Source of the DNA: a virus
Lineage: Duplodnaviria; Heunggongvirae; Uroviricota; Caudoviricetes
Reading direction: 5' to 3' (one strand)
Virus record (IMG/VR): IMGVR_UViG_2675903366_000010
Location: 1-22,774 of that record
DNA: 22,774 nucleotides
The position numbers and the translations under genes are program-made. The notes below the pieces were generated by a model. That model saw only the letters and a program-made list of their open reading frames with translations. It did not search any database and was not told where the DNA came from. Below are positions 13,799 to 16,636 of the stretch, piece after piece. The stretch's first letter is position 1. Every line of letters begins with the position of its first letter.

Positions 13799-13808
13799 AG
13801 GAGTGAGC

Positions 13809-13991
13809 ATGAGCGAGCAAATATTCAGAGAGATTAAGCCACGGTTTTATCGCAAGGTAAGGGTGGTTTATCAGGACGAAAACAAGACCTGTGCATACGC
13901 CATTCATAATGGTCGGTGGTCAGTGTTCGACACCAAAAACTTCGAGAAGAACTTCGAGAGGATTAAGGGTGATGAGGAAACTAACATTTGA
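13809..13991 (+). CDS. Hypothetical protein (60 aa)
   Basis: ATG at 13809 preceded by AAGGAG at 7 nt; overlaps ninB start by 20 nt. Confidence 0.5.
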   Translation: MSEQIFREIKPRFYRKVRVVYQDENKTCAYAIHNGRWSVFDTKNFEKNFERIKGDEETNI

Positions 13992-14412
13992 ACTAAGAAG
14001 CCCCATCCATCAGCAGAACGCCATTCAAGCTATCCAGCAAATTCTTCCAGACCCAACCAAACCAATCGTAGTAACCATTCAGGAACGCAACCGTAGCTTA
14101 GACCAAAACCGAAAGCTTTGGGCTTGCCTTGGTGACGTCTCGCGTCAGGTTGAATGGCATGGTCGATGGCTGGATGCAGAAAGCTGGAAGTGTGTGTTTA
14201 CCGCAGCATTAAAGCAGCAGGACGTTGTTCCTAACCTTGCCGGGAATGGCTTTGTGGTAATAGGCCAGTCAACCAGCAGGATGCGTGTAAGCGAATTTGC
14301 GGAGCTATTAGAGCTTATACAGGCATTCGGTACAGAGCGTGGCGTTAAGTGGTCAGACGAAGCGCGACTGGCTCTGGAGTGGAAAGCAAGATGGGGAGAC
14401 AGGGCGGCATGA
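13972..14412 (+). CDS. ninB: NinB (Orf family recombination mediator)
   Basis: Internal ATG gives a 146-aa protein [55 protein letters not shown] matching lambda NinB. Confidence 0.92.
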
Positions 14413-14591
14413 GGCGACAACGACGAAGTATCACCGACATAATCTGTGAAAACTGCAAATACCTTCCAACGAAACGCTCCAGAAATAAACGCAAGCCAAT
14501 CCCAAAAGAATCTGATGTAAAAACCTTCAACTACACGGCTCACCTGTGGGATATCCGGTGGCTAAGACATCGTGCGAGGAATACAAGGTGA
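14409..14591 (+). CDS. ninE: NinE
   Basis: [53 protein letters not shown] matches lambda NinE; ATGA overlap with the ninB stop. Confidence 0.85.
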
Positions 14592-14683
14592 TTGACGCGA
14601 TGATTTATTTGGGGCTATATTCCTCACGCGCCAGCAAAATCTGGCGTCGGGATTAGGAACCCCGGATAGAGACCGCGACAGAC

Positions 14684-14708
14684 ACACGCCGCGAGCGTGT
14701 TTTTTATT
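14684..14708 (+). terminator. Intrinsic terminator-like hairpin in the ninE-roi intergenic region
   Basis: ACACGC-cgcga-GCGTGT followed by TTTTTTATT. Confidence 0.5.
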
Positions 14709-14868
14709 GTCGTATGCACGCGCACATCTGAATTATGGTGGGGCGTATGGGGGAGCTGAAAAGCTCGCCGGTTGGTTTCCCGGTAGTTCCTAACCCTGTA
14801 CGTCTCACCACCCGATGATTAGGAACCTGACGGTGGTGATAGTTTAGAAACCACTCGAGGGCGTCATT

Positions 14869-15549
14869 GTGACAACTCAAATCTCTGTTGAAACTCTCTC
14901 CCCGATCACCCATAACCAGATTCCTGTTATTACCACCGAACTTTTGGCGCAGCTTTATGGCACAGAAATTCTGAACATCCAGGTTAACTTCACCAGAAAC
15001 AAAGAGCGTTTTGTCGAAGGAAAGCACTTTTTTAAAGCATCTGGTGAGGAATTAAAAAATTTGCGACTTACTTTAAGTAAGTCACAAAACCCCATATCTC
15101 CCAAAGCCCGCTCCCTTATCCTCTGGACAGAACGCGGAGCAGCCCGTCATGCAAAAATGCTCGAAACCGATCAGGCGTGGGAAGTGTTCGAAAAACTGGA
15201 AGACTGCTATTTCAGCCAGGGCGAGAAAAATACTGGCAAACAAGAGAAGAAGCTCAACGGGCTTTCCGCAAAAGAAACAGACATCCTTGTATGGCTGTGG
15301 GATTATGCCAACCGCTCACAGGCATTGTTCCGTGAGTTGTATCCCGCATTAAAACTGATTCAGTCTGGCTATTCCGGCATATGCCACGACTACGGCTATG
15401 AGTTCTCGTATATCATCGGGAGGGCGAGGGGCGTTTTAATTAATCACACGCGGGATATAGATATTTATGAGCCTGACGGGCCGACGAACCTTCTGGCATT
15501 GGAAAGGCTTAATAACAAAGAGTTGCCGCCTTCACTGCATCGCTACTGA
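14869..15549 (+). CDS. roi: Roi-like DNA-binding protein (ORF6N-type N-terminal domain)
   Basis: 226-aa ORF with GTG start; N-terminal [30 protein letters not shown] resembles the ORF6N / Roi family of lambdoid phages. Confidence 0.7.
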
Positions 15550-15566
15550 CAATTGACAACTTAACA

Positions 15567-15593
15567 AACCCAGCTTCGGCTGGGTTTTTTATT
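15567..15593 (+). terminator. Strong intrinsic terminator after roi
   Basis: AACCCAGC-ttcg-GCTGGGTT (8-bp stem, tetraloop) followed by TTTTTTATT. Confidence 0.8.
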
Positions 15594-15617
15594 GCTGAAT
15601 TTTCAATGTGAGAGGAC

Positions 15618-16346
15618 ATGACAATGAATGAGCTGATAAATAACAATGCCATCAAAATGACAAGCATTGAAATCGCTGAGTTGGTGGGAAGCCAACACGG
15701 TAATGTCAGAATATCAATAGAACGTCTGGCAAAGCGTGGGGTGATTCAACTTCCTCCAATGCAAAAAGTTGAAAATAAACAAACAATTAGCCCTAACAAA
15801 TTCACAAGCGTGTATATATTCGAAGGCGAACAAGGTAAGCGCGATAGTATCATTGTCGTCGCCCAGTTGTCGCCAGAGTTCACCGCTCGCCTTGTTGACC
15901 GCTGGCGAGAACTCGAAGGGGCAACCGCGAAAATCCCACAAACCTTCTCTGAAGCATTGCGCCTCGCGGCTGACCTTGAAGACCAGAAGGCTGAACTGGA
16001 GAAACAGCTTGCTCTCGCAGCACCTAAAGTTGATTTTGCCGATCGCGTTGGCGAGGCCAGCGGAATTTTGATTGGAAACTTTGCAAAGGTTGTTGGTATT
16101 GGTCCAAACAAACTGTTTGCGTGGATGCGCGATCACAAAATCCTTATTGCTTCAGGTTCCCGGCGAAATGTGCCAATGCAGGAATATATGGATCGCGGCT
16201 ATTTCACAGTGAAAGAAACAGCGGTCAACACAAATCACGGAATACAGATATCGTTCACCACAAAAATAACCGGGCGTGGTCAACAGTGGCTGACCAGAAA
16301 GCTGCTCGATAACGGAATGCTGAAAGTAACAGGGGAGGCTGCTTAA
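15618..16346 (+). CDS. Phage antirepressor-type protein (Rha-like N-terminal domain plus KilAC/ANT C-terminal domain)
   Basis: N-terminal TSIEIAELVGSQHGNVRISIERL resembles Rha family; C-terminal DFADRV...FAKVVGIGPNKLFAWMRDHKIL resembles KilAC; probable start is the ATG at 15624 (AGGA 7 nt upstream). Confidence 0.75.
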   Translation: MTMNELINNNAIKMTSIEIAELVGSQHGNVRISIERLAKRGVIQLPPMQKVENKQTISPNKFTSVYIFEGEQGKRDSIIVVAQLSPEFTARLVDRWRELEGATAKIPQTFSEALRLAADLEDQKAELEKQLALAAPKVDFADRVGEASGILIGNFAKVVGIGPNKLFAWMRDHKILIASGSRRNVPMQEYMDRGYFTVKETAVNTNHGIQISFTTKITGRGQQWLTRKLLDNGMLKVTGEAA

Positions 16347-16636
16347 TGGCTAACCTACGCAAAGAAGCGCGCGGCAGAGAATGTCAGGTACGTATTTACG
16401 GCGTATGCAATGGCAATCCTGAAACTACAGTTCTGGCACATTACCGGATGGCTGGAATTTGCGGAACTGGAATGAAGCCTGACGACCTGATCGGCGCATG
16501 GGCTTGTAGCGCGTGTCACGATGAAATCGACCGACGCACCCATAATCTCGACAACAAAGACGCCAGACTTTACCACCTCGAAGGCGTGATCAGGACGCAG
16601 GCGATACTGCTGAAGGAGGGGAAGATTAAACCATGA
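16346..16636 (+). CDS. DUF1364-family protein (YbcO-like, Cys/His-rich putative nuclease)
   Basis: 96-aa ORF with CxVRIYGVCNGNPETTVLAHY...CSACHDE pattern; immediately upstream of rusA as in the DLP12 prophage. Confidence 0.7.
   Translation: MANLRKEARGRECQVRIYGVCNGNPETTVLAHYRMAGICGTGMKPDDLIGAWACSACHDEIDRRTHNLDNKDARLYHLEGVIRTQAILLKEGKIKP

Follow-up and report, generated by a model that had tools for sequence, protein, structure and literature searches.

A probable P1 immI-type antisense RNA cassette between ninE and an antirepressor gene of a lambdoid prophage

Results

Organization of the ninE–antirepressor gap

The window analyzed here, a stretch of 22,774 nucleotides from a tailed-phage genome (IMG/VR record IMGVR_UViG_2675903366_000010), contains a 277-bp gap (14592–14868) between ninE and an antirepressor gene. 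The gap carries no annotation in public records: in the GenBank and RefSeq entries of many Stx and other lambdoid prophages it is left blank or filled with a "hypothetical protein". It opens with a promoter-like element whose -35 box lies directly 3' of the ninE stop codon (TGA, 14589–91). The features recognized in the gap and in the adjoining gene are collected in Table 1.

Table 1. Features of the cassette and of the gene that follows it (coordinates of the window)
Feature	Position	Strand	Remarks
Cassette promoter, TTGACG-18-TATATT	14592..14621	+	Counterpart of P1 promoter P1c4 (former P51b); predicted transcription start ~14628
IsrK-type leader/decoy RNA, ~78 nt (predicted)	14628..14706	+	Hairpin 1, a1 hairpin, b1, terminator
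a1, upstream (decoy) copy of site a, UUAGGAAC	14653..14660	+	In the 9-nt loop of hairpin 14648–14664; 8 bp with a'
b1, upstream (decoy) copy of site b, GAGACCG	14669..14675	+	7-bp helix with b', including two G-U pairs
Predicted mature C4 RNA, 76 nt	14737..14812	+	tRNA-like 17-bp acceptor stem, two hairpins, 3' ACC tail
b', antisense determinant, UGGUUUC	14773..14779	+	In the 8-nt loop (14772–14779) of C4 hairpin 2; complementary to b1 and b2
a', antisense determinant, GUUCCUAA	14786..14793	+	In the unpaired C4 junction (14785–14793); complementary to a1 and a2
Hairpin presenting a2, 19-nt loop	14805..14839	+	Inverted repeat TCACCACC/GGTGGTGA; 100% paired in 20 of 20 distinct cassettes
a2, target in the antirepressor mRNA leader, UUAGGAAC	14819..14826	+	8 bp with a'; starts 7 nt after the predicted C4 3' end
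b2, target in the antirepressor mRNA leader, GAAACCA	14847..14853	+	7 bp with b'; ends 3 nt upstream of the Shine-Dalgarno sequence
Shine-Dalgarno GAGGG (14857–61) and GTG start codon (14869–71)	14857..14871	+	Read from the sequence
Ant gene, 226 aa, ORF6N N-terminal and P22 antirepressor C-terminal domains	14869..15549	+	Predicted directly controlled gene
Intrinsic terminator closing the cassette, AAACCCAGC-TTCG-GCTGGGTTT and T-run	15566..15595	+	Between the Ant gene and roi; 9 pairs, UUCG loop

The protein encoded downstream of the gap matches the Pfam families ORF6N (2.3e-21) and P22AR_C (1e-22), and its close homologs bear the RefSeq name "phage antirepressor Ant". An Ant of the P22AR_C type has been reported to promote efficient Shiga-toxin phage induction (PMC3064807). 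The start codon is ATG in all 36 other distinct relatives sampled and GTG in the window copy, so the antirepressor of the window may be weakly expressed. A preliminary description of this DNA had named a repeated motif in the gap as a candidate control element of a Roi-like and a Rha/KilAC antirepressor gene. The antirepressor gene (14869–15549) is indeed the one placed for direct control, whereas the true Roi homolog, a KilAC protein, is the product of the second gene (15618–16346) and lies beyond a terminator whose core follows the Ant gene in nearly every ninE–roi locus. The roi gene is absent from cassettes in other genomic contexts.

Within the gap, three Rfam families exceed their gathering scores, all on the plus strand and in the expected order: isrK, c4-a1b1 and C4.

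A promoter and an IsrK-type leader RNA

The promoter-like element noted in the preliminary description was confirmed in the sequence (TTGACG at 14592–97, an 18-nt spacer, TATATT at 14616–21). It matches 10 of the 12 sigma-70 consensus positions and is the best match between 13800 and 16400. Its two boxes align with those annotated for P1c4 (-35 and -10) in phage P1, and the element is kept in cassettes with an unrelated upstream flank (loci L049, L050, L072, L077 and L080). Both hairpins described downstream of it were also recovered: (G)CGCCAG-caaaat-CTGGCG(U) at 14628–14647, and the terminator hairpin ACACGC-cgcga-GCGTGT at 14684–14700 followed by a T-run, the latter found by the same scan as the promoter.

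The small RNA of about 80 nt that had been guessed from these elements corresponds well to a known family. The segment 14628–14705 (about 78 nt) matches the isrK model (RF01394) end to end, over model positions 1–77, at 69.4 bits (gathering score 50), and model position 1 falls at the predicted transcription start. The c4-a1b1 model (RF03163) matches 14615–14668 at 47.8 bits, only just above its gathering score of 46.7. In the folded leader, hairpin 1 (14628–14647) is followed by a second hairpin (14648–14664) that holds a1 in its loop, by single-stranded b1, and by the intrinsic terminator (14684–14700) with its U-run. Across 20 distinct sequences, pairing in hairpins 1 and 2 is complete (100%), and the promoter-like and terminator-like sites of the predicted IsrK RNA are conserved at the expected places.

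The only inverted repeat in a scan of 14560–14900 that flanks the promoter (14571–83 and 14618–30) was considered as a possible operator and rejected because it is not conserved in other cassette contexts and shows no covariation.

A C4-type RNA downstream of the leader terminator

The preliminary description had overlooked both the C4 RNA (14737–14812) and the triplet of b sites. The C4 model (RF01695) matches a precursor at 14731–14815 on the plus strand over model positions 1–87, with 67.0 bits against a gathering score of 45. The ends of the mature species were placed from the annotated c4 RNA of P1 (48343–48419); by analogy, RNase P is predicted to cut between U14736 and G14737. The sequence context at the predicted cut (AUUAU/GGUGGGG) is identical to that of P1, and the 3' ACC tail is present.

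The minimum free energy (MFE) fold of this RNA (-42.4 kcal/mol, z = -5.7) has the same dot-bracket architecture as P1 C4. For the predicted mature RNA the fold accounts for 81% of the ensemble and leaves a' and b' unpaired. The stems are 96–100% paired among the cassettes compared, with nine pairs showing compensatory changes, and slid controls are 33–47% paired.

An AUG at 14735, at the 5' end of C4, was considered as the start of a conserved small protein, the counterpart of Gifsy-1 "orf45". It was rejected because its frame varies from 14 to more than 49 codons among relatives, its stops shift and the peptide is not conserved. In the window the frame has 27 codons, lacks a Shine-Dalgarno sequence and ends 50 nt before the ant start codon.

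Two triplets of complementary sites

The repeated motif of the preliminary description, TTAGGAAC, is present at 14653–60 and 14819–26, and its complement GTTCCTAA at 14786–93. In the output of a repeat finder the direct repeat is 11 nt long (GATTAGGAACC, 14651–61 and 14817–27), and the inverted pairs 14650–60/14786–96 and 14786–93/14819–26 are listed as well. Over the whole window and both strands the motif occurs four times against 0.37 expected, a number reached in 0 of 100 dinucleotide shuffles. The fourth copy (14227–34, minus strand) lies inside ninB, where the plus strand reads GTTCCTAACC and resembles a'. It is not part of the element, since the same ninB codons (run VVPNL) occur in loci that use other a alleles.

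Linking the motif to control of the downstream antirepressor gene was sound: its three copies are the sites a1, a' and a2 of a P1-type C4 system, and the copy previously described as inverted is a'. A second triplet, b1, b' and b2, accompanies it. Sites b1 (GAGACCG) and b2 (GAAACCA) differ from each other and yet both pair with b' (UGGUUUC), which makes sense only at the RNA level. In every allele b2 adjoins or overlaps the Shine-Dalgarno sequence of the antirepressor gene, with direct overlap in, for example, GAAAAAGGA and GUACGGAG. The hairpin that presents a2 can form only when C4 is unfolded or unprocessed, because its 5' arm (14805–12) doubles as the 3' strand of the acceptor stem of C4.

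The pairings were further examined by energy calculations. When the whole leader is folded, its MFE structure has a1 and b1 paired in cis with a' and b' (z = -3.5). The duplex energies of the C4 core with its targets beat most shuffles but not all, 18 of 500 and 23 of 500 shuffles doing as well. Co-folding of C4 with its targets was uninformative (ddG = 0) because loop-loop (kissing) complexes cannot be represented.

The preliminary description had read the three copies of TTAGGAAC differently, as a candidate set of DNA operators through which a Roi-like or antirepressor protein, or a repressor, would regulate downstream transcription. The over-representation of the motif (4 versus 0.37), its location between a promoter and regulatory genes, and the putative DNA-binding domains of the downstream proteins (ORF6N, Rha) are what one would expect of such operators. 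However, the copies lie 32, 165 and 198 bp downstream of the -10 box, none overlaps the promoter, and the motif is not palindromic. All three sit inside transcribed structures, in loops or junctions of the RNAs that the covariance models recognize. The differences tolerated between the b sites, GAGACCG versus GAAACCA, are compatible with G-U pairing and would not preserve a DNA site. Finally, the same arrangement in P1 is, by experiment, an antisense RNA system (P1 record; PMC5320573). Together with the behavior of related cassettes described below, these observations make operators a reading to which we attach next to no probability.

Allele covariation among related cassettes

To compare related loci we used 37 distinct cassettes drawn from 80 loci. 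The sites were taken by anchored extraction and compared by a permutation test at the level of alleles rather than by counting pairs in alignment columns, as MAFFT misaligns a one-nucleotide length difference between alleles. Six a alleles and seven b alleles were found, in 11 combinations. Each antisense allele forms 6–9 bp, G-U pairs included, with either of the two target copies in its own cassette. For a, the cognate assignment outscores every other of the 720 permutations; for b, it ranks in the top two of 5040. Besides the alleles of the window, examples are a' ACGCCAA with b' CGGUUUC, and a' GUGCUAA with b' UGUUUCGA.

Thus, the three copies of each site change jointly while Watson-Crick or G-U complementarity is kept, which argues for RNA pairing and against a DNA operator. 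One copy is inverted in every allele. The recognition alleles also reassort independently of the downstream protein sequence, another point against a site recognized by that protein.

Some cassettes have one module in common but not the other (L049 and L058, for instance), and in genomes with several cassettes the co-resident combinations differ in three of the four sampled. One might therefore regard a and b as two independently reassorting address codes that link E. coli lambdoid prophages in a combinatorial network. We put this forward only tentatively and consider it rather less likely than its opposite.

Cassettes identical or nearly identical (at least 99%) to that of the window occur in 100 E. 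coli records, and the module of promoter, IsrK, C4 and Ant gene was found in at least three different genomic contexts. In all likelihood, then, the cassette is a self-contained module placed between ninE and roi of a lambdoid prophage. Judged from its sequence, the ninE-to-antirepressor gap is very probably a complete antisense RNA cassette of the bacteriophage P1 immI type.

Discussion

A model for antirepressor control

We propose a model in which promoter activity, termination, RNase P processing, translational block, decoy effect and antirepressor target are carried over by analogy from experiments on P1 and Gifsy-1. A constitutive sigma-70 promoter (14592–14621) would start transcripts at about 14628. 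Most of them would stop at the intrinsic terminator (14684–14706) and yield a 78-nt IsrK-type RNA with a1 (UUAGGAAC) in a loop and b1 (GAGACCG) single-stranded. Transcripts that read through, together with N-antiterminated pR transcripts in lytic growth, would carry the tRNA-like precursor, from which a cut by RNase P at U14736/G14737 would release the 76-nt C4 RNA (14737–14812).

C4 would display its two determinants, b' (UGGUUUC) in the loop of a hairpin and a' (GUUCCUAA) at an unpaired junction, and would pair through them with a2 (14819–26) and b2 (14847–53) in the leader of the ORF6N/P22AR_C antirepressor mRNA. Since b2 abuts the Shine-Dalgarno sequence, we propose that this pairing denies ribosomes access and so prevents antirepressor synthesis in the lysogen. 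Sites a1 and b1 would compete for the same determinants, in cis on the unprocessed transcript and, in the form of the short IsrK RNA, in trans, so that an excess of leader RNA would relieve repression. Every read-through transcript also carries a1 and b1, and the net amount of free C4 would therefore depend on RNA stabilities. Once made, the antirepressor would push the prophage towards induction. Sites a and b would act as an address code in which only the cognate C4 silences a given cassette, the principle of P1/P7 heteroimmunity.

A purely cis-acting switch, as proposed for IsrK of Gifsy-1, would account for part of these features in another way. In such a switch, pairing of a1/b1 with a'/b' locks the mRNA, IsrK opens it in trans, a small upstream ORF takes part, and C4 has no role as a repressor. 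The cis pairing of a1/b1 with a'/b' in the whole-leader fold agrees with this, as do the G28A and G31A mutations of Gifsy-1 with their compensatory partners and the more than 100-fold activation of anrP by IsrK supplied in trans; the AUG at 14735 corresponds to the one that opens orf45 (+107/+108 relative to the transcription start). However, a2 and b2 are conserved, and they covary no less strictly than a1 and b1 do, which pairing of a1/b1 alone leaves unexplained, and b2 abuts or overlaps the antirepressor Shine-Dalgarno sequence in every allele. The variable length of the AUG 14735 frame, its end 50 nt before ant and its lack of a Shine-Dalgarno sequence make conserved translational coupling unlikely. 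The tRNA-like stem and ACC tail, moreover, are kept as in P1, where RNase P frees a trans-acting 77-nt repressor. We therefore regard a purely cis-acting switch as unlikely. The two models are compatible, and the decoy role of IsrK is already contained in the antisense RNA model.

Terminators in the path from pR to Q are classical for the lambda nin region. The hairpins and T-runs might be tR-type terminators that block N-independent read-through to Q, with the RNA cassette a decayed, non-functional remnant. Two intrinsic-terminator-like sites do lie in this path (14684–14700 and 15566–15587), and the ant start codon is GTG instead of ATG. Against decay, all parts are intact and score like the functional locus of P1, the Ant ORF is full length with both of its domains, all six sites and the stems remain under selection, as their covariation shows, and identical or near-identical cassettes recur in the 100 E. 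coli records mentioned above. A remnant is thus highly improbable. Terminator action within the pR operon is a side effect compatible with the antisense RNA explanation.

Implications for prophage interactions

The antisense RNA reading would give a definite function to a 277-bp gap that is blank in many prophage records, and it replaces the protein-operator hypothesis with an RNA-RNA mechanism whose recognition code is legible straight from the sequence. The cassette system itself is textbook-type biology rather than a discovery. Cross-silencing and cross-activation of antirepressors between prophages of one strain become predictable, which is relevant to the induction of Shiga-toxin phages. 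If repression requires a match at both sites, the alleles would determine between which prophages, co-resident or incoming, C4 silences antirepressors and IsrK decoys de-repress them. The tentative address-code network, if real, would have consequences for the set of Stx prophages induced together. A parallel cassette of the sRNA-Xcc1 type, with the same three-copy logic and the same gene family downstream, would extend the principle beyond the C4 family.

Comparison with known systems

Elements of this kind are already known from P1/P7 (c4), Gifsy-1 (IsrK) and APSE phages, and partial likenesses extend to other phages. Phage P22 immI encodes an antirepressor with the same C-terminal domain, P22AR_C, and its control involves an antisense RNA, sar. 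The latter is transcribed from the opposite strand as a cis-antisense RNA in the strict sense, and P22 additionally requires two repressor proteins, Mnt and Arc, for control; no counterpart of this arrangement was seen. The CA RNA of N15 is a processed, tRNA-like antisense RNA with upstream and downstream complementary sites. The CI RNA of satellite phage P4 is likewise described, as cited in PMC4825925, as a processed, tRNA-like antisense RNA flanked by the complementary sequences seqA and seqC. In P4 this RNA causes transcription of replication genes to terminate prematurely and does not control translation of an antirepressor; the likeness is one of description.

In the APSE phages of Hamiltonella, isrK-family and c4-family RNAs are reported to lie beside a regulatory gene of the BRO-N or ORF6N type, with a' and b' matching the sequence upstream of it (Rouil et al. 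2020, PMC7313666). Host, phage lineage and downstream gene differ from those of the window, and the APSE paper contains no decoy-site or allele analysis.

The isrK-orf45(STnc1160)-anrP locus of Gifsy-1 in Salmonella (Hershko-Shalev et al. 2016) is, like that of the window, part of a lambdoid prophage, and the window has a full-length IsrK match. In both, one promoter (predicted in the window) serves a short terminated sRNA and a read-through mRNA, and an antirepressor-like gene is under translational control, again predicted for the window. A processed stable RNA lies downstream of IsrK in Gifsy-1, at the position of the window C4, and the cis pairing of the window leader with the C4 region corresponds to the isrK "structure A". 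In Gifsy-1 this structure was shown experimentally to be translationally inactive, the mutants G28A and G31A and their compensatory partners support the cis fold, and anrP translation rose more than 100-fold when IsrK was supplied in trans (PMC4825925). The authors' model is a cis/trans RNA switch that includes translation of "orf45"; repression in trans by the processed C4-like STnc1160 was not demonstrated, and co-expression did not reduce toxicity (PMC4825925). The window counterpart of orf45, with 27 codons, is not conserved and ends 50 nt before the ant start codon; coupling by overlap is therefore not possible, unlike in Gifsy-1. The neighborhoods differ as well: Gifsy-1 has antQ upstream, and no IsrJ-like sRNA was found after the window Ant gene, where a permissive Rfam search gave only sub-threshold, terminator-driven matches.

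For the comparison with P1 immI we relied on the annotated P1 record and on secondary descriptions. RNase P processes C4 at a GGW site, with b' occluding the ribosome-binding site and a' giving specificity (PMC5320573). The Rfam scores are similar, at 68.8 bits in P1 versus 67.0 in the window for C4 and 51.0 versus 47.8 for c4-a1b1. Promoter, a1, b1, c4 RNA, a2, b2 and start codon are collinear, and the two nucleotide sequences can be aligned over the whole stretch between -35 box and start codon.

The 5' part of C4 has nearly the same sequence in both (GAAUUAUGGUGGGGCGU); as in the window, P1 C4 holds b' (CACUAAC) in the loop of hairpin 2 and a' (CUGUCAA) in the junction, and ends in a 3' ACC tail. 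Both loci place the a1/b1 decoys ahead of a terminator-like hairpin and a2/b2 just after C4 and at the ribosome-binding site, followed by an antirepressor gene. Site a2 starts 4 nt after the C4 3' end in P1 and 7 nt after it in the window. A pairing equivalent to the a2 hairpin can be seen by eye in P1 (CCUGCCACC/GGUAGCAGG).

The two loci differ in several respects. In P1, a small ORF, icd, lies between b2 and ant, its translation is the step controlled by C4, and b2 overlaps its Shine-Dalgarno sequence; the Icd protein has no Pfam family. No icd-like ORF was found between b2 and the Ant ORF of the window, which starts 15 nt after b2. The P1 antirepressor Ant1 is of the KilAC type and that of the window of the ORF6N/P22AR_C type. 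P1 also has a C1-controlled promoter, P51a, with operator Op51, upstream of the constitutive promoter, whereas one promoter was seen in the gap: reading from the ninE stop codon to the -35 box revealed no P51a/Op51 counterpart, and the promoter scan gave one strong site. Unlike in P1, the window cassette resides in a lambdoid prophage, co-oriented within the pR delayed-early (nin) operon. The sites themselves differ, with a being UUGACAG in P1 and UUAGGAAC in the window, and b GUUAGUG in P1 and GA(A/G)ACC in the window. P1/P7 heteroimmunity nevertheless provides the precedent for allele-specific recognition, which the cross-pairing matrix predicts for the window cassettes as well.

Identity of the cassette

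We determined the identity and structure of the cassette in the gap together with the positions, complementarity and covariation of its recognition sites. The whole window was scanned against Rfam and matches above the gathering score were kept. Three adjacent matches, c4-a1b1, isrK and the C4 antisense RNA, lie between ninE and the antirepressor gene (see table). Together, they are parts of the immI immunity region of bacteriophage P1, for which the P1 record annotates the promoter P1c4 (formerly P51b), a1, b1, a 77-nt c4 RNA, a2, b2, icd, and ant. For the P1 locus itself, the scores are 68.8 bits (C4) and 51.0 bits (c4-a1b1), practically equal to those of the window. The alignment of the two regions is collinear, beginning at the -35 box and continuing to the start codon, and the 5' region of C4 is nearly identical (GAAUUAUGGUGGGGCGU).

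All features listed in the preliminary description were found in place on reading the sequence, and its guess of a small RNA of about 80 nt holds, as this RNA is the isrK match. The promoter is the top sigma-70-like site in 13800-16400, with 10 of 12 positions matched, and the same scan independently detected the terminator at 14684-14706. A 13-nt inverted repeat (14571-14583/14618-14630, 85% complementary), with one arm in the 3' end of ninE, flanks the promoter; it is probably fortuitous, because it is not kept where the cassette has another upstream neighbour. Elsewhere in the window, a full-length match to the lambda cIII thermoregulator RNA element (RF01804, 6974-7032, minus strand, 88.5 bits, gathering score 50) confirms the lambdoid nature of the prophage.

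Features of the cassette and the adjoining genes
Feature	Position	Strand	Remarks
-35-like TTGACG	14592-14597	+	read from sequence; immediately 3' of ninE stop codon
-10-like TATATT	14616-14621	+	read from sequence; 18-nt spacer from TTGACG
c4-a1b1	14615-14668	+	Rfam, 47.8 bits (gathering 46.7)
isrK	14628-14705	+	Rfam, 69.4 bits (gathering 50)
Hairpin 1	14628-14647	+	read from sequence
Motif TTAGGAAC	14653-14660, 14819-14826 (direct); 14786-14793 (complement)		read from sequence
a1	14653-14660	+	within 9-nt loop of hairpin 14648-14664
b1 GAGACCG	14669-14675	+
GC-rich hairpin and T-run, terminator-like	14684-14706	+	read from sequence; also found by scan
C4 antisense RNA	14731-14815	+	Rfam, 67.0 bits (gathering 45)
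b' UGGUUUC	14773-14779	+	loop of C4 hairpin 2
a'	14786-14793	+	single-stranded junction of C4
a2	14819-14826	+	begins 7 nt past predicted C4 3' end
b2 GAAACCA	14847-14853	+	ends 3 nt upstream of Shine-Dalgarno
Shine-Dalgarno GAGGG	14857-14861	+	gene start GTG at 14869
Ant gene	14869-15549		ORF6N N-terminal and P22 antirepressor C-terminal domains
Terminator after Ant gene	15566-15595 (hairpin 15566-15587)		scan; 9 bp, UUCG loop; between Ant gene and roi
Roi homologue (second gene)	15618-16346		Rha and KilAC domains; true counterpart of VT2-Sakai Roi

Recognition sites and predicted RNA folds

The three copies of TTAGGAAC are a1, a' and a2; a second triplet, b1, b' and b2, had been overlooked. 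By homology with P1, mature C4 is predicted to span 14737-14812 (76 nt). Folded alone, this predicted RNA adopts the P1 C4 architecture at an ensemble frequency of 81%, with a 17-bp tRNA-like closing stem, a GAAA hairpin, the b' hairpin, the a' junction, and a 3' ACC tail; its fold energy is -42.4 kcal/mol, compared with -42.0 for P1 C4 (z = -5.7). In the entire leader (14628-14880), a1/b1 are predicted to pair in cis with a'/b' (z = -3.5). A further hairpin, 14805-14812/14832-14839, displays a2 in its loop and is paired in all 20 distinct relatives; P1 has an equivalent of different sequence. In the window, the arm 14805-14812 also serves as the 3' strand of the stem that closes C4, so that an unprocessed transcript can adopt only one of the two folds at a time. 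The b2 region (14842-14852, GTTTAGAAACC) shares 82% identity with the a-site repeat GATTAGGAACC, a hint at a possible origin of the a and b target sites by duplication.

Covariation across relatives

To the 80 viral-contig loci collected through relatives of the downstream protein we added VT2-Sakai; this sample yielded 41 distinct upstream regions, 37 of which carry the isrK and C4 cassette. These cassettes contain six a alleles (UUAGGAAC, UUGGCGU, UUAGCAC, UUUGCAC, UUGGAAC and UUGGCAU) and seven b alleles in 11 combinations. The decoy, antisense and target copies always vary jointly, retaining 6-9 bp of complementarity. The cognate antisense/target assignment ranks first, untied, among the 720 permutations for a and is one of the two best among 5040 for b, a tie that arises because two b' alleles have a common target set. 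RNA stems show 96% pairing with nine compensatory pairs, against only 33-47% for slid controls, and the promoter hexamers are kept even with an unrelated upstream flank. Four genomes have several cassettes, and in three of them the cassettes present together differ from one another. The allele catalogue and the independent reassortment of a and b modules may be a modest new observation, perhaps already published.

The preliminary description had proposed that the repeated motif forms an operator set controlling the downstream genes. The 22.8-kb window contains four copies of TTAGGAAC where 0.37 would be expected, no shuffle yielded as many as four, and a repeat finder lengthens the direct copies to 11 nt. 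However, the three copies in the gap covary as RNA complements, and b1 and b2 may differ from each other yet both pair with b' through G-U pairs, which is a signature of RNA-RNA recognition, contrary to a DNA operator. Thus, the earlier interpretation stands for the small RNA and falls for the operator. The fourth copy (14227-14234, minus strand, within ninB; GTTCCTAACC on the plus strand), 10 nt of which are identical to the a' region of C4, was rejected as part of the system: it encodes a conserved ninB codon run, VVPNL, and looks coincidental because it is also present in loci whose cassettes have other alleles.

The controlled gene and the limits of the module

Homologues of the Ant gene are named 'phage antirepressor Ant' in RefSeq. 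The gene next to the gap had been labelled Roi-like; the true Roi homologue is the second gene. The latter is missing where the cassette occurs in other contexts, after a rusA-like gene (L072-76) or before ninB (L077-80), so the module, which is composed of the promoter, IsrK, C4, the Ant gene and the terminator, ends before roi. This strong terminator (hairpin 15566-15587) is kept in nearly all ninE-roi loci and, because an A-tract precedes it and a T-tract follows, is possibly bidirectional. The scan also found a 13-pair terminator-like hairpin on the minus strand within the Ant gene (15060-15088).

The start codon is GTG (14869-14871) in the window and in loci with an identical upstream region, and ATG in 36 of 36 other distinct cassettes; one locus (L032) has ATG despite sharing its recognition alleles with the window. 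The GTG may be a translation-initiation down-mutation.

In VT2-Sakai (L081 2807-3533) and tandem-cassette loci (L037 1082-1440), truncation or recombination has altered the first ORF6N gene. The break falls in a conserved 19-residue region, exactly where the new cassette or gene copy starts, which suggests a recombination hot spot within the ORF6N domain. In L077, a related prophage, a sok antitoxin RNA match (RF01794, 5165-5339, 118 bits) lies a few kb downstream of the cassette and identifies a hok/sok-type toxin-antitoxin locus there.

A parallel cassette with sRNA-Xcc1

In three loci (L037:1440-1715, L066:2230-2505 and L051:2230-2505), an sRNA-Xcc1-family RNA (RF02221, 73-79 bits) takes the place of C4 ahead of the same ORF6N/P22AR_C gene; farther upstream, all three also have an isrK and C4 cassette, so that two cassettes stand in tandem. 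The leader contains a promoter, two target sites and a terminator, the tRNA-like RNA bears both antisense sites, and the two sites recur directly upstream of the Shine-Dalgarno sequence, the same three-copy design as in the C4 cassette. The sites are TCAGAA/TTCTGA and CTAAAG/CTTTAG in L037 and L066, and CTCAAAA/TTTTGAG and CAAGTAG/CTACTTG in L051. This design and the covariation of the sites between loci suggest that sRNA-Xcc1-type RNAs are C4-like antisense regulators of antirepressor genes.

Proposed mechanism

In P1 and P7, RNase P excises C4 from a longer transcript at a GGW site, the b' loop of C4 occludes the ribosome-binding site, and specificity comes from the a' region, a 4-nt difference between the two phages sufficing against cross-reaction (P1 record; summaries PMC5320573, PMC12197685). 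In Gifsy-1, two transcripts start at one promoter, a terminated short IsrK and a read-through mRNA; the latter is translationally inactive when the middle part of IsrK folds in cis with the downstream (C4) region, where the stable processed RNA STnc1160 is located, whereas supplying IsrK in trans increases translation of the antirepressor more than 100-fold and triggers prophage induction (PMC4825925). Combining the two bodies of evidence, C4 would pair with a2 and b2 and thereby silence the antirepressor, and the a1/b1 leader would compete, in cis and as a free small RNA, setting the threshold for de-repression. By this analogy, we infer transcription, termination, processing, translational block, decoy action and the antirepressor's target for the window.

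Comparison with known systems

Systems of this kind are already well known, and the element belongs among them: examples are c4 of P1 and P7 (1990) and IsrK in Gifsy-1 (2008 and 2016). C4 and c4-a1b1 motifs are known from gamma-proteobacterial phages (PMC2864571), and APSE phages have paired isrK and c4 RNAs adjoining BRO or ORF6N genes (PMC7313666). At least 904 of 5426 complete E. coli genomes contain close copies, as do 278 phage records, most of which are from Stx phages. VT2-Sakai, CB9615 and the majority of Stx phage records leave the gap blank or call it 'hypothetical'; annotation is what public records lack.

Gifsy-1 'orf45' has an equivalent of 27 codons in the window, ending 50 nt upstream of ant; its length and peptide are not conserved among the relatives compared, and we therefore discounted it as a gene. 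P1 has an icd ORF and the repressor-controlled P51a/Op51, whereas the cassette has no icd-like ORF and, on reading the sequence, one promoter and no counterpart of P51a/Op51. The antirepressor is of the P22AR_C type in the window and of the KilAC type in P1. Unlike in P1, the cassette lies within the pR delayed-early operon, and therefore N-modified transcripts should pass both terminators during lytic growth.
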